From positions 3,584,001 to 3,648,000 of the forward strand of contig OY764159.1 of NCBI GenBank assembly GCA_963668175.1: a DNA stretch of 64,000 bases. The letters are read 5' to 3'. Source of the stretch: Syntrophales bacterium. Its GTDB lineage: Bacteria; Desulfobacterota; Syntrophia; Syntrophales; PHBD01. A program made the position numbers and the translations under genes. This document shows, piece after piece, positions 22,062-30,076 of this stretch. Below the pieces are notes generated by a model, which had not been told where the DNA came from, searched no databases, and saw nothing but the letters and a program-made list of their open reading frames with translations. The number at the start of each line of letters is the position of its first letter. Within the stretch, counting starts at the first letter, position 1.

Positions 22062-23363
22062 TCAGATGTTCCGTTTGTCGACGATCGGCTGAATTTTCCC
22101 GTCCTGCCGGGGAATGTTGCCCGGCTCCACGAGCTGCAGCGTAACATCAATGCCGATGGCCGATTCGACCCGTTTTCGAAAGGCCTCCGGGAAGGACCTC
22201 TGCCTCTGCATTTCCATGGCAAAGATCTTCTCCGTCGTCTCGATGACCACGGTGAGGACGTCTTTCGCCCCCTTCCGTTCCACAACCAGTTGATAGAGCG
22301 GCTCGTCGTCGGCAATGCCGTAGAGTATCTCCCGGATCTGGGAAGGATAGATGTTCACTCCCCTGATAATCAGCATGTCGTCCGTCCGTCCCGTGGTCTT
22401 CTTCATACGCACCATCGTCCGGCCGCATTCGCAGGGCGTATAGTCAAGGCTTGTGATATCGCCGGTCCGGTAACGGATGACCGGACAGGCTTCCTTGGTG
22501 ATGGTCGTAAGCACCAGTTCACCCTCACTTCCGGGAGGGAGCACTGCCCCCGTCTTCGGGTCGATGATTTCCGGAATGAAACTGTCTTCAAAGAGATGCA
22601 TGCCCTGTTTGAGGTGGCATTCTCCCGCTACCCCGGGGCCGATGACGTCCGAAAGCCCGTAGTTGTCCGTGGCGCTTAAATGAAGCCGTTCTTCGATCTC
22701 CCGGCGGACCGCCTCCGACCAGGGTTCCCCGCCGAACAAGCCTACCTTCAGCATCAACGATTCCGGTTTGATCCCGAGTGTCTCCATCCGGTCGGCCATC
22801 GTCAGGGCATAGGTCGGCGTGCAGACCAGGACCGTCGTCTTGTAGTCCTGCATGATCGTGATCTGCTTCTCTGTGTTTCCCGTGCTCGTGGGAATGACGG
22901 AGGCCCCGATGGCTTCCGCTCCGTAGTGGAGGCCGAACGCCCCGGTGAAGAGTCCGTAGCGAAAAGCGATCTGTACGAGGTCGTCGCGGGTAACACCCGC
23001 CGCCGTCATGAACCGGGCTACGACGTTGGTCCACATGCGGATATCGTTCTTCGTATAACCGACGACCACAGGCTTGCTCGTCGTTCCGGAAGACGAATGG
23101 ATGCGTACCACTTCCCGGAGAGGTACGGCGAACATCCCGTAGGGATAGTTGAGACGCAGGTCCTCCTTGGTCGTAAAGGGGAATTTCTGCAGGTCGGAAA
23201 GGAATTTGACGTCCTCCGGGATGATCCCGGTGTCGTCGAATTTTCCCCGATAGCAGACCACATTCTTATAAACCCGGTTGACCGTCGCTTGCAGCCGTTC
23301 CAACTGCAGTTGCTCGATGTCTTCCCGCGGCATGCATTCGTGGAGCGAATCCCAGATTTTCAC
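22062..23363 (-). CDS. paaK: Phenylacetate-CoA ligase family (aryl-acetate CoA ligase)
   Basis: PFTTKEDLR, HSSSGTTSKP, YGLFTGAFG, DNYGLS, IRYRTGD, GRTDDMLIIRGVN; GTG 23363 with AGGAGGT RBS. Confidence 0.92.
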   Translation of the reverse strand: MKIWDSLHECMPREDIEQLQLERLQATVNRVYKNVVCYRGKFDDTGIIPEDVKFLSDLQKFPFTTKEDLRLNYPYGMFAVPLREVVRIHSSSGTTSKPVVVGYTKNDIRMWTNVVARFMTAAGVTRDDLVQIAFRYGLFTGAFGLHYGAEAIGASVIPTSTGNTEKQITIMQDYKTTVLVCTPTYALTMADRMETLGIKPESLMLKVGLFGGEPWSEAVRREIEERLHLSATDNYGLSDVIGPGVAGECHLKQGMHLFEDSFIPEIIDPKTGAVLPPGSEGELVLTTITKEACPVIRYRTGDITSLDYTPCECGRTMVRMKKTTGRTDDMLIIRGVNIYPSQIREILYGIADDEPLYQLVVERKGAKDVLTVVIETTEKIFAMEMQRQRSFPEAFRKRVESAIGIDVTLQLVEPGNIPRQDGKIQPIVDKRNI

Positions 23364-23385
23364 CGTACACCTCCTGCAAAACGGA

Positions 23386-24138
23386 TCATCTCTCCCATAT
23401 CTCCTTCTTGTCCTTGCCCAGATAGGCCCGCTGGACCTCCCTGTTTTCACTAAGGTCGGCCGCTGTCCCCTCCAGGATCATCCGGCCCGTCTCCAGCACA
23501 TAACCACGGTCGGCGATCTTGAGCGCCGCCCTGGCGTTTTGCTCCACCAGGAGGATGGTGGCGCCCCGTTCCCTCGCCAGCTCTTTAACGACCCGAAAGA
23601 TATCCTGGGCCACCAGCGGGGCAAGCCCCATGGACGGTTCATCGAGCAGCAGCAGCTTCGGTTTTGTCATAAGAGCGCGCCCTATGGCAAGCATTTGTTG
23701 TTCGCCTCCCGAAAGCGTCCCCGCCAGCTGTTTCCGTCTCTCCTTCAGCGTCGGAAAAAGATCGTAGATCGCTTCCAGGTTCTTTTCCGCCTCCTTCCTG
23801 CCTCCTCTCGTAAGATGGAGCCGGTAGGCGCCGAGTTGAAGATTGTCCTCCACGGACAGAGGTTTGAAGACCTGCCTGCCCTCGGGTACCTGAGAAATAC
23901 CCAGTTCGACGATCCTGTGGGGAGGCAGGTTGCTTATAGGAAGCCCCGCAAAGCGTATCTCGCCTTCCCTGGGCGGAACGATGCCCGACAGGGAATTGAG
24001 GAGGGTCGTTTTGCCTGCGCCGTTCGCCCCGATCAGGGTGACGATTTCCCCTTCGTTCAGGTGCAGGGAGAAGTTTTTCAGGGCATGGACCTGCCCGTAA
24101 TAGGTGTTGATGTTCTTGACACGCAACAGAGCTGTCAT
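23386..24138 (-). CDS. livF: HAAT-family ABC transporter ATPase
   Basis: GANGAGKT, VPEGRQVF, LSGGEQQMLAIGRALM; start at ATG 24138. Confidence 0.93.
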   Translation of the reverse strand: MTALLRVKNINTYYGQVHALKNFSLHLNEGEIVTLIGANGAGKTTLLNSLSGIVPPREGEIRFAGLPISNLPPHRIVELGISQVPEGRQVFKPLSVEDNLQLGAYRLHLTRGGRKEAEKNLEAIYDLFPTLKERRKQLAGTLSGGEQQMLAIGRALMTKPKLLLLDEPSMGLAPLVAQDIFRVVKELARERGATILLVEQNARAALKIADRGYVLETGRMILEGTAADLSENREVQRAYLGKDKKEIWER

Positions 24139-24890
24139 TATCCTTCTCCCAGATAGGCCGTAACGACGTCCCTGTTTTCCTGAATCTCCCGAGGCGTTCC
24201 CTCGGCCAGTTTTCGTCCCAGATTCAGCACGACGATCGTGTCGCAGATATCCATGATGAGTTCCATATCGTGCTCGACGAGGATCACGGTAATCCCGAGA
24301 TCCCGGACCTTCCTGATCAGGGCGGCAAGGCCGATGGTCTCCCTGCTGTTTAGGCCCGCCGCCGGTTCGTCCATGAGGATGACTTTGGGTTCGACCGCCA
24401 GCGCCCGGGCAATTTCCAGGAATCTTCCTTTTCCGAAAGGCAGGTTTCTTGCTTCGATCCCGGCCGATTCCCCCATACCCGTGAATTCCAGCCAATGGAG
24501 GCTCTTCTCGTGAATGAGCTTCTCTTCCCGGATCTGGCCGGGCAGCCTGAAGGCGCAGGAAACGATGCCGCTCGAACTTTTCGTATGAAGCCCGACCATG
24601 ACGTTCTCCAGGACCGTCATCTGGCCGAAGAGCTCCACGTTTTGAAACGTCCTCACCAAACCCAGGCCGGCCAGCTTCTCCGGCACATACCGGGAGATAT
24701 TCCGATCTTCCAGGTAAACCTCACCCGCCGTCTGCGTATAAAGCCCCGTCACGACGTTGAAGAGTGTCGTCTTGCCAGCGCCGTTGGGGCCGATGACGCC
24801 GGTGATGGTTCCCTTTTGTACGGTAAAAGAGACGTCTTCCAGGGCCGTGATCCCGCCGAAGACTTTCGTGATCCCCTCAAGCCTCAGCAT
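24138..24890 (-). CDS. livG: HAAT-family ABC transporter ATPase
   Basis: GPNGAGKTT, RTFQN, DEPAAGL, AYLG. Confidence 0.93.
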   Translation of the reverse strand: MLRLEGITKVFGGITALEDVSFTVQKGTITGVIGPNGAGKTTLFNVVTGLYTQTAGEVYLEDRNISRYVPEKLAGLGLVRTFQNVELFGQMTVLENVMVGLHTKSSSGIVSCAFRLPGQIREEKLIHEKSLHWLEFTGMGESAGIEARNLPFGKGRFLEIARALAVEPKVILMDEPAAGLNSRETIGLAALIRKVRDLGITVILVEHDMELIMDICDTIVVLNLGRKLAEGTPREIQENRDVVTAYLGEG

Positions 24891-25881
24891 GCGTCCCCCC
24901 TCCCGTCTTCCTCCTCAGCCGGGCGGTGACAATCTCAGCCAGGCGGCGAAAACCGCCCGCCAAGCCGGCCGGCATAAAGATGGTCATGACGATCAGCAAC
25001 GCCCCGTAGATGACGATATCGAAATCGTTGAAGACGCGAAGCATCTCCGGCATGAGGGTCAGAATGGCCGCCCCGAGGAACGAGCCGTAGATGCTGCCGA
25101 GGCCGCCGATGATGACCATCGTCACCAGTTCCACGGAGAGGTTGAAACCGAAGGATGCCGGCGAAATGAAGGTCATCGTATGGGCATAGAGACTGCCCGC
25201 CAGGGCGGAGAAAACGGCGGAAACGGTGAATATCTGGACTTTCAGTATCCGGGCATTGACTCCCATCACCCGGGCGGCCACTTCGGAGTCGTTGATAGCT
25301 CGAAGCGCCCGGCCGATTCTCGAATCGGACACGTTGATCGACAGCAGCATCATAACCAGGGCGAATGCCCAGATCAGGTAGTAGTTCGCCTTGTCGCTGT
25401 CGAAGACGAACGCCCCCAGGGAAAGATTCGGTATGCCCGACAGGCCCGAAGGACCGCCTGTCAGATCGACCGTTTCGTTGAGAAGGATATAGACAATGAT
25501 ACCGAAGCCGAGGGTTGCCATGGCCAGGTAATGTCCCTTGAGCTTCAGGATGGGAAAGCCGATGATAAAGGCCAGAAGGCCGATGACGACCGCCGCCAGG
25601 ACCATGGCCAACCACGGATCGACGTTGTACGCCGTCGTGAGAACCCCCGAGCCGTAGGCCCCCAGACCGAAGAAGGCGGCATGCCCCAGCGAGATCTGCC
25701 CGGCAAATCCCAACAGCAGATTGAGGGCGATGGCCAGCATCGTGTTGATGCCGACAAAGACCATCACGTTCATGAGATAACTCCCCCCCAGGAGGAAGGG
25801 CGCGGCCATCACGGCAGCGGCAAAGCAGAGAAACAGCACAAGCTCTCTTTGTCCTTTGGTCAATGTTCCGAATTTCGACAT
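24877..25881 (-). CDS. livM: HAAT-family ABC permease
   Basis: GQISLGHAAFFGLGAY, LKGHYLAMATLGF, TGGPSG, GGLGS. Confidence 0.92.
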   Translation of the reverse strand: MSKFGTLTKGQRELVLFLCFAAAVMAAPFLLGGSYLMNVMVFVGINTMLAIALNLLLGFAGQISLGHAAFFGLGAYGSGVLTTAYNVDPWLAMVLAAVVIGLLAFIIGFPILKLKGHYLAMATLGFGIIVYILLNETVDLTGGPSGLSGIPNLSLGAFVFDSDKANYYLIWAFALVMMLLSINVSDSRIGRALRAINDSEVAARVMGVNARILKVQIFTVSAVFSALAGSLYAHTMTFISPASFGFNLSVELVTMVIIGGLGSIYGSFLGAAILTLMPEMLRVFNDFDIVIYGALLIVMTIFMPAGLAGGFRRLAEIVTARLRRKTGGGTHAEA

Positions 25882-25887
25882 ACGGCG

Positions 25888-26772
25888 TCAAACCCTTTCC
25901 GCTTCCGCCTGTCCAAACAGGCCCTGCGGCCGGACAAAGAGAATAATAAGCAGGATGACGAAGACGATGGCCTCCTTGTAGCTCGCCGATACCATTCCCG
26001 CTCCGAACGATTCGAGGATTCCCAGGAGGAGCCCTCCGGCCACCATGCCGACGCCGCTGCTCATCCCGCCGATGATGGCCGTGCAGAAGCCTTTCAGCCC
26101 GAGCATGATGCCCACATCGTAAGAGGTCATCGTCAAGGGAGCGATGATGATGCCGGCCAGGGAACCCACGGCGGAACTTATGGCGAAGGAAAGCCGCACC
26201 ATCCGGACGACATCGATGCCGACCAGCCCCGCGGCCCTGCGGTTGAACGAGCAGGCGCGCATGGCCTTGCCCACGATGCTGTAATGGAAGAAAAGCCTGC
26301 TCAGGACGATGACCACGACGGTAATGCCGAAGATCCAGAGATGCTGGGGAAGGAGCGTGGCGTCCATGAAATAGAGAGGTTCGCTTCCCGTAAAGGCGGG
26401 CAGCGCGTGGGTGTCCTTTCCCCAGATCAGCATGGAGATGCCGCGGAGCAGAATACTGACGCCGATGGTGATAATGACGAGGGCGAGAGGCGTCGGCTTC
26501 TTCAGGGGCCTGATGGCAAGGTACTCGAACGCTATGCCGACGGCTGTCGAGACCGCAACAGCCAGAAGAACGGCCAGCGGCAGCGGCAGATTGAGCACGC
26601 TGAAGAAAAAGAGCGTCGCCATCCCGCCCAGCATGACGAACTCGCCCTGGGCGAAGTTGATGATGCCCGTCGCGTTAAAGATAACGGCAAAGCCGAAACC
26701 GATGAGGGCGTAAATGGCGCCGTTGGACAGTCCCGTCAGCGTATATTGTATGATTTGCCGAAAATCTTCCAT
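25888..26772 (-). CDS. livH: HAAT-family ABC permease
   Basis: GAIYALIGFG, INFAQGEF, GKAMRA, RPQGLFG. Confidence 0.92.
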   Translation of the reverse strand: MEDFRQIIQYTLTGLSNGAIYALIGFGFAVIFNATGIINFAQGEFVMLGGMATLFFFSVLNLPLPLAVLLAVAVSTAVGIAFEYLAIRPLKKPTPLALVIITIGVSILLRGISMLIWGKDTHALPAFTGSEPLYFMDATLLPQHLWIFGITVVVIVLSRLFFHYSIVGKAMRACSFNRRAAGLVGIDVVRMVRLSFAISSAVGSLAGIIIAPLTMTSYDVGIMLGLKGFCTAIIGGMSSGVGMVAGGLLLGILESFGAGMVSASYKEAIVFVILLIILFVRPQGLFGQAEAERV

Positions 26773-26777
26773 GGTTT

Positions 26778-27920
26778 CTATTTAACGAGCGACCACTTTC
26801 CCTTTTTGACCTCCACCAGAACGAAGGCGTCCTTGGTGAGTCCGGCATGATCCTGGGCGGAAAAGTTGAATATCCCGCCGATCCCGGAGAAGTTCCTGGT
26901 TTTCTCAAGCTGGTCGCGAATGGCAGCAGGTTCCGCCCCTCCGCGTTCAATGGCCCCCTTCAGGAGCATTACCGCATCCCATGCATGGCCTCCGAAATGA
27001 TCGCCTTCCGTCTTGTACACCTTTTTGTAGCCCTTTACAAAGGACGTGAGGGATTTTTTCTGCGGGTCCGAATTCGGGAGCAGATCGGCGACGAGCACAC
27101 GCCCCGAAGGCAGCACGATGCCTTCGCTCGCATCACCGGCCAGTTCGATGAACTTCTTCGAGGACACGCCGTGACTCATCAGGAGGGGTATCTTCATACC
27201 CAGTTGCTTGAAGTTCCGGGCGATGACGGCCGGACCGGGATTGGTCCCCCAGCAGATAAGCGCCTGGGCCTTGCTGTCGCGGATTTTGGTCAGCTGGGCT
27301 GTCATGTCCGTATCCTTCGGCCCATAAGTCTCATCGGAAATGATCTGGATGCCGAAACCCGCCGCCTGGCCTTTCAACTGCTCGCGACCGGACGAACCGA
27401 AGGAATCGGAAACGGTGAGCAGCGCGACGCGGTTGATATTCTTCTTTTTCAGGTATTCGTAAATCCTGGCTGCGGCCAGGGAATCGTTTTGAGCTGTTTT
27501 GAAAACCCATTTCTTGGCCGGCTCGGTGATCTTGATCCCGGCGGCACAGGAAATGAGCGGTAGCGCGGCCTTTTCAACCAGGGGGATGACCGCCATGGTA
27601 TCGCCTGTCGTACTGGGACCGATGATCGCCGCGACCTTGTCCTCCTTGATAAGGCGGTTCGCCGCCTGGACGGCTTTCGTCGCGTCGCCCTGTGTATCGT
27701 AGGTGACAAGCTGGAGCATTCGGCCGCCGATCCCGCCCGCCTTATTGATTTCGCCGACGACCATCTCGGCGGTGTTTCGTTCCGGCTCGCCCAAGAACGA
27801 CGGCGGCCCGCTTATGGAGAAGAGCGCCCCTATCTTGATGGGTGGCGCAGCCTGAACAGTTCCCGCCGCCATGACGAATGCCGCCAATACCAATACCAAC
27901 CTCAATATTCTGTGTGACAT
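26778..27920 (-). CDS. HAAT-family periplasmic substrate-binding protein (aromatic/branched acid-like)
   Basis: Signal peptide; IKIGA, INKAGGIGG, DMTAQLTKI; first gene of the liv-paaK operon; AAGGAGG RBS. Confidence 0.9.
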   Translation of the reverse strand: MSHRILRLVLVLAAFVMAAGTVQAAPPIKIGALFSISGPPSFLGEPERNTAEMVVGEINKAGGIGGRMLQLVTYDTQGDATKAVQAANRLIKEDKVAAIIGPSTTGDTMAVIPLVEKAALPLISCAAGIKITEPAKKWVFKTAQNDSLAAARIYEYLKKKNINRVALLTVSDSFGSSGREQLKGQAAGFGIQIISDETYGPKDTDMTAQLTKIRDSKAQALICWGTNPGPAVIARNFKQLGMKIPLLMSHGVSSKKFIELAGDASEGIVLPSGRVLVADLLPNSDPQKKSLTSFVKGYKKVYKTEGDHFGGHAWDAVMLLKGAIERGGAEPAAIRDQLEKTRNFSGIGGIFNFSAQDHAGLTKDAFVLVEVKKGKWSLVK

Positions 27921-28027
27921 GGTTCCCTCCTTAGGTCATAATAATTATGAACAGCTGTCGCATACAGCGGTTGACAGCGAAAAACGATTTGTCGATGGGA
28001 AAAAAGTACCGGTTCAGTCGTTGATTA

Positions 28028-28061
28028 GCCTGCTCTCCCGTTGAACGGCCGGGAAGCAGGC
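28028..28061 (-). promoter_or_regulatory. Attenuator-like hairpin directly after the leader peptide stop
   Basis: GCCUGCUUCCCG-9 nt loop-CGGGAGAGCAGGC (12 bp, one bulge); U6 about 22 nt further downstream. Confidence 0.6.
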
Positions 28062-28062
28062 A

Positions 28063-28143
28063 TTAATACTTGTAGGTATACCCGCAGGTATAGGGATGGG
28101 CTTGAAGTGAATAATGGATGGAACTAACTTTAAACATAGCCAT
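28063..28143 (-). CDS. Putative Tyr-rich leader peptide MAMFKVSSIHYSLQAHPYTCGYTYKY
   Basis: Manual translation; 5 Tyr in 26 codons, 4 of them in the last 9; ends 142 nt upstream of the SBP start; no obvious SD sequence. Confidence 0.65.
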   Translation of the reverse strand: MAMFKVSSIHYSLQAHPYTCGYTYKY

Positions 28144-28295
28144 GTCTTCGGTTAATCGTCGTTGGTTTCTCCCTAGTGGATTCAGGCCGATCTGTCAAGC
28201 ATTTTTATCGGCAAAGGAATGGGAAATGCCCCTTTCCCCCTCGTATGACCCAGTAATGCCTCGCGGCCGCGGAGAAACAGGCGGACCTGGAACGG

Positions 28296-28991
28296 TTATA
28301 GACGATAGGGAATGGGGTCTTCGATCCCAGCCTCGGCAAAACCCTTTCTGCGGAGCAGGCAGCTGTCGCACCGGCCGCACGACCGGCCGTCCGAAGCAGG
28401 GTCGTAGCAGCTGTGCGTGATGCCGTAATCGACGCCCAGTGAAATTCCCTTCATGATGATTTCCGCCTTGGTCATATGAATCAACGGCGTCCTGATACGG
28501 GTGCGAATACTGCCCTCCACACCGGCCTTCGTCGCCAGATTGGCCGTCTTTTCGAAGGCCGCGATGAATTCCGGCCGGCAGTCGGGATAGCCACTGTAAT
28601 CGATCGCATTCACACCGATAAAGATATCGGCCGCTCTCAGGACTTCCGCCCATGCCAGTGCGAAAGACAGGAAGATCGTGTTGCGCGCCGGAACATACGT
28701 GACCGGAATCCCATCGCCCAGTTCATCGGCGGAACGGTTCTTGGGGATGTCCGATTTCCCGGTAAGGGCCGATCCGCCGATGGCGGAAAGGTCGATGCGC
28801 ATAACGAGATGCTCTCTAGCGCCGAAAAAATCTGCGACCTTCTTCGCCGCCGTCAGCTCCAGGGCATGCCGCTGGCCGTAGTTAAAGCTCAGACTGTAGA
28901 TCTCGTAACCTTCCGCCCTGGCGATCGCCATCAGGGTGGTCGAATCCAGTCCTCCGCTGGTGAGGACAACGGCCCTCTTTTCGGTGCTCAT
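28296..28991 (-). CDS. queC: 7-cyano-7-deazaguanine synthase
   Basis: [35 protein letters not shown]. Confidence 0.96.
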
Positions 28992-29005
28992 GCCGCCCAT
29001 CTCCT

Positions 29006-30076
29006 TCAATGATTTCCGGTCGGGTCTTCGAACCATCTCATAAAAAACTGTTTTTTATTTTCGCAGCGTCCGTCATGCCAGCAAGGGTGATAAACGGTAT
29101 CTTGCTGCCCTGCCCGCTTCAATCGTATTTCGTAAGGTCTGCCTTCGCGGACCACATGGACGTAAAGGGCAAAACTGTCGGCAAAATCCTCCCAGATATT
29201 CACGGAGGCCTGCAACGAGGGGAAATCGGTCGCAGTGAAGAGGCGGCGATACACCGTTTCTATCTGACCTGTCGTCAGCAATGCCCCATGAAACCGGTAA
29301 AAACGGACGAGGCTGCGTGCCGGAAATAGTTCGTCGTAGCGGCTCTTCACCGCTCCCTTTTCCATCTTCCAGGAAATGGCCGTAAACGGATACCGGTCCG
29401 AAACGGCCGCCGGTTCGTTCCATGAAGGATGGGCACCGCTTGCCATGCCGAGGACATGACCGATTTCATGCAACAGGATAAAGCGGATGGCATTCTCCAC
29501 GCTATCTTCGGCCGGCTTTTCTATGACGACGTCGAGCTTTACATCCTTATCCGGCTCCGTCTTAAAGACGCTGTTCTCCTTCCAGGTTGCCCATTCGTTG
29601 GCCCTCCTTTTCAGGAGCAGGCCTCGGTTCAGAACGATGAATGCATACTTCTCTTTCTGATTCTCGTCCCTGACCGCCTCGGCAAAACCCGCGCCGCCCA
29701 GATGATCGACCAGAAAGACGCCAATGACCCTGTCCGTCAGAAGTCTTCTCACCTTATCCGGGAGACGTTCCTCGATGTGCTGCAACACCATCCCGAATTC
29801 GGGTGCAGGTTCGGCCGGCGTCGGCCGCTCCGTGAATCCGTGTAACTCGTTTTCAACGGTCAATAATTGGATGACAAGATCAGGGGCTTTGGCGATCCGC
29901 TGCGACAGAGGCTTTTCCTTCCACGCAAATCCCCAGTAACGGATCGTTTGTGTTTGCCGAAAGGATAAATCGGCCTGAACCGAGGCAGAAGCGGGGAGAT
30001 AAGAAATGAAGAGGCATGGCGCGGCAAACACGGCGAAGACGAGAAAGTGCACGTACATTCTTTTCATGTGCGCCAT
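29006..30076 (-). CDS. Secreted protein with a zincin HExxH motif (putative metallopeptidase)
   Basis: N-terminal signal-like stretch, LLHEIGH, downstream EDFADSF; start uncertain. Confidence 0.6.

Follow-up and report, generated by a model that had tools for sequence, protein, structure and literature searches.

A candidate Tyr-tRNA-sensing leader without a terminator ahead of putative aryl-acid importers of the Syntrophales

The livKHMGF-paaK operon of a Syntrophales bacterium lies behind a short leader ORF that ends in Tyr-x-Tyr and a hairpin set at a fixed distance from it. The element is kept across the order and is a real, order-wide candidate for a new form of ribosome-mediated attenuation, probably a Tyr sensor without a terminator. 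Tyr-tRNA sensing and aryl-acid salvage are both well supported by sequence comparison. We regard the sensing of Tyr as very probable and a Rho-dependent output as reasonably so; on balance we favor the combined reading, in which the Tyr-x-Tyr leader and its hairpin would form a Tyr-tRNA gauge, a predicted aryl-acid importer being read through only when Tyr is short and a split Rho-loading site is shielded.

At ~150 nt and with >140 distinct natural variants, the element offers a compact system for hairpin-assisted ribosome stalling and a Rho switch, and the natural variants in which the stop codon is lost and the spacing kept hint at what matters. It also suggests that two uncharacterized transporter families of syntrophic bacteria, currently annotated as BCAA or C4-dicarboxylate importers, probably serve to salvage tyrosine from aryl acids. 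Older comparative attenuator screens reportedly took in deltaproteobacteria and could list the classical type. The element was not found described in the accessible parts of the literature on Tyr leaders with phenylacetate, Rho-dependent attenuation, and the Syntroph- and Deltaproteobacteria; motif-screen supplements (e.g. PMC8632094) could list it.

The element ahead of livK

In the window, the whole 64,000-nucleotide stretch of DNA analyzed here, the operon, its leader and the predicted leader promoter are on the minus strand. The leader ORF (28143..28063) reads MAMFKVSSIHYSLQAHPYTCGYTYKY-stop and comprises 26 codons, or 24 counted from the second ATG; it contains five Tyr and has PYTCGYTYKY-stop at its C-terminal end. 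A single U separates the stop codon from a 34-nt hairpin (28061..28028) of 12 bp plus a bulge, with a folding energy of -21.0 kcal/mol, in which a near-invariant GCCUGC/GCAGGC base stem carries a covarying upper stem. No U-tract lies 3' of the hairpin, the nearest U6 run being ~23 nt off and not behind the stem. An earlier note on this DNA had described the 26-codon ORF, the 12-bp hairpin 1 nt after its stop and the lack of an adjacent U-tract, all of which are found here. The sensor codons, assigned from sequence and conservation, are Tyr-Lys-Tyr (UAC AAG UAU; 28066..28074), and conservation marks the stop codon UAA plus the one U (28062..28065) as a fixed 4-nt spacer from the last Tyr codon to the hairpin. 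The hairpin is 107 nt from livK, whose Shine-Dalgarno (SD) sequence AAGGAGG is at 27926..27932, with no accessibility switch predicted.

A leader promoter is predicted from the consensus among relatives, with the -35 hexamer TTGACA at 28193..28198 and, after a 17-nt spacer, the -10 hexamer TAGGGA at 28170..28175; these hexamers were not among the predictions of a generic promoter scan. Transcription is predicted to start near 28163, upstream of the leader ATG. In 126 of 141 elements TTGAC occurs no more than 120 nt 5' of the leader ATG, and the consensus of 132 elements is TTGACA-N17-TA. Because this consensus lies 5' of the leader ORF, a transcription start downstream of 28063, which the earlier note had named as a finding that would speak against it, is not favored.

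The 4.57-Mb genome has 14 short ATG ORFs ending in Tyr-x-Tyr-stop, of which only the leader ORF is followed by a strong hairpin that begins at most 3 nt past the stop, and a covariance model search of the genome finds a single copy of the element. Folding of the entire 283-nt leader is unremarkable (z -0.77), so the case rests on conservation and not on folding energy. The Rfam 15 covariance models gave no match to 27700-28500 at E up to 10, and nothing at the gathering score in 7 loci.

Two other features were observed nearby. A perfect 7-1-7 inverted repeat, TCATAAT-N-ATTATGA (27936-27950), lies just 5' of the livK SD and is absent from the closest relative (locus L465, 90% identical). That relative keeps IYKY-stop, has a hairpin differing by one base, and also has queC (28296-29036 here) directly upstream. 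Tyr tRNA bears queuosine; the adjacency of queC is probably a coincidence, since the neighbors differ in other genomes.

Conservation across the order

An orthologue of LivK is present in 106 of 339 genomes of the order, and 99 of the 107 matches were examined. Thirty-five of these 99 loci have the element described here (type A), 20 have a classical Tyr-run attenuator (type B), 34 are without a recognizable leader, 9 have other or decayed terminators (two Trp-type leaders among them), and one was too short; the LivK tree was built by a quick method. A pattern scan of GTDB contigs returned at least 120 loci, with record titles that are mostly Syntrophales, Smithella, Syntrophus or deltaproteobacteria, and among the 122 matches listed in the scan an unrelated TRAP cassette, dctPQM, lies downstream in 71 and livK in 18; 21 of the 122, then 3 more, were discarded as chance ahead of the counts. 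The leader-associated dctP is present in 182 of the 339 genomes, and the element was found at 84 of 90 dctP loci examined, which were taken from 186 matches as the 30 best and 60 hand-picked to spread over families. Two loci (L292 and L341) were dropped from this set, and the genome of L341 has the element by covariance model.

The two gene-anchored sets, livK and dctP, were selected by the hairpin only, blind to Tyr, and hold 119 loci with 108 distinct elements. In all 108, Tyr-x-Tyr is found exactly 4 nt 5' of the GCCUGC/GCAGGC hairpin. The last sensor codon is UAU in 107 of them, opposite to the binding-protein genes, which favor UAC over UAU (550 vs 278); the first is UAC in 62 and UAU in 46, and the middle codon specifies Met in 73, Lys in 15, Thr in 11 and others in 9. 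A stop codon is kept in 98 (UGA in 68, UAA in 30), and in the other 10 a sense codon replaces it such that the ORF ends 12-24 nt inside the hairpin, with UAU-N4-hairpin retained. An in-frame ATG lies 10-40 codons upstream of Tyr-x-Tyr in 104 of 110 cases (8 and 2 in the other frames), and the homologous leader ORFs are mostly 17-22 codons long with a weak SD. In an independent set of metagenome LivK loci, 11 of 80 are type A, and all 11 have Tyr-x-Tyr-stop. The leader ORF is conserved and probably translated. The counts show conservation and not independent events, because the genomes are kin.

Five of the six base-stem pairs never vary, an invariance that is partly imposed by the search pattern. 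In the upper stem, 76 cells are altered on both sides compared with 29 in shuffles, and 88% is paired compared with 30-53% in slid controls. Alignment upstream of orthologous operons, which the earlier note had proposed as a check, bears out both the kept Tyr codons and a covarying stem. Its emphasis on clustered Tyr codons stands for the last Tyr-x-Tyr, the conserved sensor, and fails for the remaining Tyr codons, which vary.

Of 151 genomes of the class, 93 contain the element by the covariance model, with rare exceptions as a single copy. Outside the order, a sample of the phylum gave no convincing copy, with one pattern-scan match titled Desulfobacterales; a Tyr/Phe pattern run on 401 phylum genomes matched 42 genomes outside the order, with no Tyr-x-Tyr-stop on inspection of the matches listed. 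Covariance-model outliers, examined for terminator-less Phe or Trp versions, were Tyr-x-Tyr or degenerate.

Several unusual copies were noted. Genome G337 has a second copy (L445:6050-6140, minus strand) with YFYTY-stop and an altered yet fully paired stem before a broken dctP; this copy stayed at the his locus, and the livK of the genome sits elsewhere. A degenerate copy in G031 (L446:1530-1615), with PIY-stop, a damaged stem and a local duplication, lies ~270 nt ahead of heterodisulfide-reductase-like genes. At L447 and L449 the element is directly before dctQM with no dctP match between.

The importers and their probable cargo

The operon begins with a LivK-fold solute-binding protein (26778..27920), followed by livH, livM, livG and livF homologues (ABC permeases and ATPases; 23386..26772) and a PaaK-like aryl-acetate-CoA ligase (22062..23450). 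All of the liv genes score under the BCAA equivalog cut-offs, LivK itself reaching 104.9 bits with NF011933 (cut-off 477), and the ligase falls short of the cut-off for catabolic PaaK (TIGR02155; 542.3 bits vs 646.3). A structural model of LivK ties with p-coumarate, phenylpyruvate (4dqd) and hydroxybenzoate binders at Z 38.5-39.7, with rmsd 2.2-2.9 over 345-350 residues; its 13 best structural matches stand at the head of an aromatic-acid group, and the BCAA binder 4gnr, at Z 37.7, is within about 2 of the top. The model of the TRAP DctP groups clearly with binders of aromatic acids (Z 28-31), one of the matches being a complex with 4-hydroxyphenylacetate, and reaches at most 24.5 with any other TRAP protein. 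By these models both binding proteins are closest to aromatic-acid binders, and the importers likely carry aromatic acids. The equivalog scores and the leading aromatic binders lean toward the suggestion of the earlier note that this is not BCAA uptake, and the closeness of 4gnr tempers it.

In the proposed route the PaaK-like ligase would activate the aryl acid brought in (4-hydroxyphenylacetate or a relative), IorAB would carboxylate it, and transamination would then yield tyrosine; such salvage would spare the de novo tyrosine route. The ligase-IOR route is known for Methanococcus maripaludis, as cited in PMC4162585, and has been proposed for Bacteroides, where arylacetate-CoA ligase activity was confirmed for a ligase linked to IOR (PMC13285125). 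The present genome contains rho, iorA and tyrA, with iorAB located away from the livKHMGF-paaK operon; iorA is present in 57 of 60 relatives, which together with the closest structural matches of the binding proteins agrees with the import and activation of aryl acids proposed earlier. As tyrA is retained, in 60 of 61 genomes, the route would be one of salvage that supplements synthesis de novo.

The cargo may be 4-hydroxyphenylacetate or another compound. A competing explanation, possible if rather doubtful, is that the importer takes tyrosine itself or 4-hydroxyphenylpyruvate and not an aryl-acetate, the ligase being incidental. The phenylpyruvate complex among the tied LivK matches fits this explanation, as do the TRAP cassettes behind the leader, which have no paaK in 19 of 20 long loci; the orthologue of the operon's paaK is absent from all five TRAP-type genomes checked (best match 51-53%), so tyrosine, its keto acid or several aryl acids are possible as cargo. 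It is opposed by the constancy of the ABC operon, in which paaK follows livF in 18 of 20 LivK loci with long flanks, the other 2 stopping at a contig or fetched edge; by the related clusters outside the order, in which iorAB is directly upstream in 10 of 20, 9 of those with paaK-ACT; and by the confirmed activity of the Bacteroides ligase.

The ABC and TRAP importers rarely coexist, with LivK and dctP orthologues together in 1 genome compared with 57 expected if they were independent. At most of the long loci, whichever cassette is present lies behind the same divergent his genes and a shared gene for a small membrane protein, from which we infer that the cassettes replaced each other behind one leader. 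Some TRAP loci (L279, L294 and L463) have an ORF of ~700 aa after dctM; the start of this ORF seems to resemble NDP-forming acyl-CoA synthetases, and it may stand in for paaK.

Proposed mechanism and comparison with known systems

In the type B leaders, which occur within the same clade of LivK, Tyr runs are combined with an antiterminator that folds and a terminator with a U-tract. Because the clade uses these classical Tyr-run attenuators, Tyr-tRNA shortage is the likely signal, and induction the likely direction, for type A as well. All 20 (L032, L042, L053 and 17 more) share a common antiterminator/terminator design with up to 7 Tyr in 9 codons, and two of them gave no match in an Rfam scan. 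The Phe- or Trp-rich leaders that had been predicted ahead of related ior and paaK operons also exist. Outside the window, the iorA-iorB-dctPQM operon of this genome has a classical Trp attenuator (locus L239; G000:C1 about 438277-438420) with a WWW leader, a GC terminator and U7, the one leader seen ahead of iorA among 33 iorA loci, and this operon is a probable route of indoleacetate salvage to Trp. Phe-run attenuators are present in 3 of 20 related clusters in other orders (one with Tyr). Those at L562, L565 and L568, in other orders of the phylum, are classical, of type B design, and precede paaK-ACT-livKHMGF-paaK or livK. The LivK orthologues at L055 and L112 lie behind short Trp-containing leaders with a terminator, which suggests that the sensed amino acid has shifted.

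In the three Phe-type attenuators the antiterminator begins GUCUGC, 5 nt past the final Phe codon, its partner being G(C/U)AGAC; the type A hairpin begins GCCUGC, 4 nt past the final Tyr, with GCAGGC as the partner. The usual forms of the type B arms are (A/G)UCUGC(U/C)C and GGG(C/U)AGA, and GGG(C/U)A is a frequent end of the type A upper stem. This resemblance, as distinct from tested homology, raises the possibility that the hairpin of type A is an antiterminator kept from a classical attenuator; if so, it would mark a shift from intrinsic to Rho-dependent attenuation. We put forward only tentatively the fuller history, in which an order-wide Tyr attenuator would have kept its antiterminator after terminator loss, the hairpin now being an entry-channel roadblock that holds the ribosome, with two Tyr codons, over a split Rho-loading site, and the gauge having stayed while ABC and TRAP importers were swapped.

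The output of the type A element departs from classical attenuation, as the earlier note had allowed. A hidden intrinsic terminator is unsupported, with terminator-like sites between leader and first gene in 5 of 108 elements, and five or more T within 8 nt 3' of the hairpin in 1 of 104; against this, 52 of 108 have a U5 run at some point from hairpin to gene. SD sequestration, as in a translational attenuator, is likewise unsupported: the predicted unpaired fraction of the SD is 0.447 and 0.434 in the two ribosome states (n=100; equilibrium folding only), with changes >0.1 being a gain in 10 and a loss in 4 of 100. The 3' arm has no conserved helix partner in the ORF or downstream; its pairing with the C-rich downstream RNA was rejected as a specific fold at -5.05 kcal/mol native vs -5.47 cross-paired and -5.13 shuffled (69 diverse elements). 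A second ORF from an AUG overlapping the stop was also rejected (ACG stands in its place in 16 of 108, and inspection showed no frame to be kept). Given no conserved alternative helix, few terminators and unchanged SD accessibility, the element is not a classical two-helix attenuator and is probably not an SD switch.

We propose that a ribosome with the last UAU in its A site would meet the start of the hairpin at +11, the position of the mRNA entry channel, and be slowed in decoding, such that two Tyr codons could suffice for a sensitive gauge. With Tyr-tRNA short, the ribosome would wait and cover the C-rich half of the ORF, the hairpin would stay folded, Rho could not load, and RNA polymerase would proceed to the transporter genes. 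With Tyr-tRNA plentiful, the ribosome would pass, melt the base stem and depart, and Rho would load on both C-rich halves and terminate transcription in the roughly 40-340 nt between the leader and the first gene. According to PMC7282821, a stem-loop blocks the binding of tRNA to the A site at a distance of 11-12 nt from the codon in the P site, and at 13 nt it does not; the spacer here is 10 nt, one below the window tested there. Stems of 11-12 bp with a loop are the most effective (PMC8861025). Rho attenuators controlled by a uORF are known, and in CruR the rut site is inside the uORF, ahead of an importer (PMC12360218).

The predicted halves of the Rho-loading site (minus strand) are a C-rich, G-poor and weakly structured part of the ORF (28075..28119; 16 C, 5 G) and the C-rich, G-poor 30 nt 3' of the hairpin (27998..28027; 8 C, 4 G). 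Over the 45 nt that precede Tyr-x-Tyr, 105 of 106 elements have more C than G, and over the 30 nt that follow the hairpin 104 of 106 do; the next windows out give 42 and 61 of 106, and 3 of 19 classical leaders have more C than G. Both flanks have at least twice as much C as G in 67 of 108 elements, compared with 0.9% of the 1333 genes that served as controls. G is halved (0.14 vs 0.28) at the four-fold sites within the leader ORF and C is not raised (0.44 vs 0.43), and the C fraction after the hairpin is 0.30 vs about 0.2 in neighboring windows. Both flanks fold weakly, and the present genome encodes Rho (TIGR00767, 715.9 bits, over the cut-off). Phage lambda tR1 is a Rho-loading site split by a hairpin. 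The flanks together make ~75 nt, inside the rut-site size range of 60-90 nt (PMC12360218). The unraised C at four-fold sites, the U5 runs and the LivK orthologues with no recognizable leader weigh against the favored reading. Moreover, a C-rich, G-poor composition predicts rut sites only weakly and could serve instead to guard the hairpin from misfolding, and the Rho model leaves the sequence-invariant base stem unexplained.

These last points bear on the best-surviving alternative, an unlikely one in our estimation, in which Tyr-tRNA sensing holds and the folded or melted hairpin governs RNA decay, polymerase pausing or a protein that reads the GCCUGC/GCAGGC stem. The invariant base pairs suggest recognition rather than mere stability, and G avoidance in the flanks could just keep the stem folding. 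It does not account for the raised C after the hairpin; the elemental pause consensus G-10/Y-1/G+1 was not seen after the stem by inspection of a position table, and there is no SD switch.

Considerably less probable is an arrest peptide of the TnaC/SpeFL type, in which an aryl acid or free Tyr would block release at the stop and induce the operon, possibly for catabolism. The conserved residues that directly precede the stop, the rut-like flanks and the CoA ligase encoded further on do recall the anatomy of tnaC and speFL (PMC12360218). The conserved exit-tunnel residues and fixed stop of those peptides are nonetheless missing: Tyr-x-Tyr alone is conserved, the 10 elements with a sense codon for the stop keep UAU-N4-hairpin, and sister loci carry starvation-type classical Tyr attenuators. 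Least probable is the two-structure switch of the earlier note, in which CCUGC of the ORF (28084..28088, minus strand) competes with the hairpin 5' arm for GCAGG: the complement is real in this genome (a -10 kcal/mol duplex), yet CCTGC occurs in 34 of 147 ORFs and is absent from 113, the duplex has a mean z of -0.27 against shuffles, the motif is lost in the closest relative, the native hairpin is at -21 kcal/mol, and no terminator is available to switch, such that this pairing is rejected.

The Rho-linked Tyr gauge that we favor can be compared with several known systems. Like classical attenuators (E. coli trpL, pheL and hisL, and the sister Tyr-, Phe- and Trp-run ones), it has a short leader ORF with cognate codons ahead of amino-acid supply genes, and the position of the ribosome decides helix formation just past those codons; unlike them, it senses just two codons at the end of the ORF with a fixed 4-nt spacing, and has neither a U-tract terminator hairpin nor a conserved alternative helix. 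With the uORF-dependent Rho attenuators (tnaC, speFL, Bordetella cruR and Salmonella mgtL; PMC12360218) it shares a rut-like C-rich, G-poor RNA in or near the leader ORF, which a stalled ribosome would shield, and cruR and mgtL also control importers. In those systems the signal is a ligand-bound arrest peptide at the stop, whereas here we predict a shortage of Tyr-tRNA at sense codons as the signal, a conserved hairpin divides the rut-like RNA in two, and Rho dependence is predicted; the word tyrosine is absent from that review. The actinobacterial cys leader peptides (PMC1262725) similarly have cognate codons near the stop, no intrinsic terminator and pyrimidine-rich candidate Rho sites, but as described there they have no conserved hairpin and their Rho motifs are not conserved, whereas here the hairpin and the C>G flanks are kept in >100 distinct sequences. 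As in the pausing stem-loops of dnaX and HIV gag-pol (PMC7282821, PMC8861025), a stem of ~11-12 bp with a loop would be at the entry channel with the sensed codon in the A site; unlike those, the element has no slippery sequence or frameshift, its spacer is 10 nt vs the 11-12 nt tested (PMC7282821), and the stem-loop would be used, if at all, to sharpen amino-acid sensing. Finally, the aryl-acid salvage systems of Methanococcus maripaludis (via PMC4162585) and Bacteroides (PMC13285125) likewise have a PaaK-like ligase, IorAB and an aromatic-acid binding protein, and many relatives have a clustered iorAB-paaK-ACT-livKHMGF-paaK. Here, in contrast, iorAB maps to another part of the genome, tyrA has not been lost, and a leader peptide is predicted to control the importer, for which ABC and TRAP cassettes are swapped at one locus.
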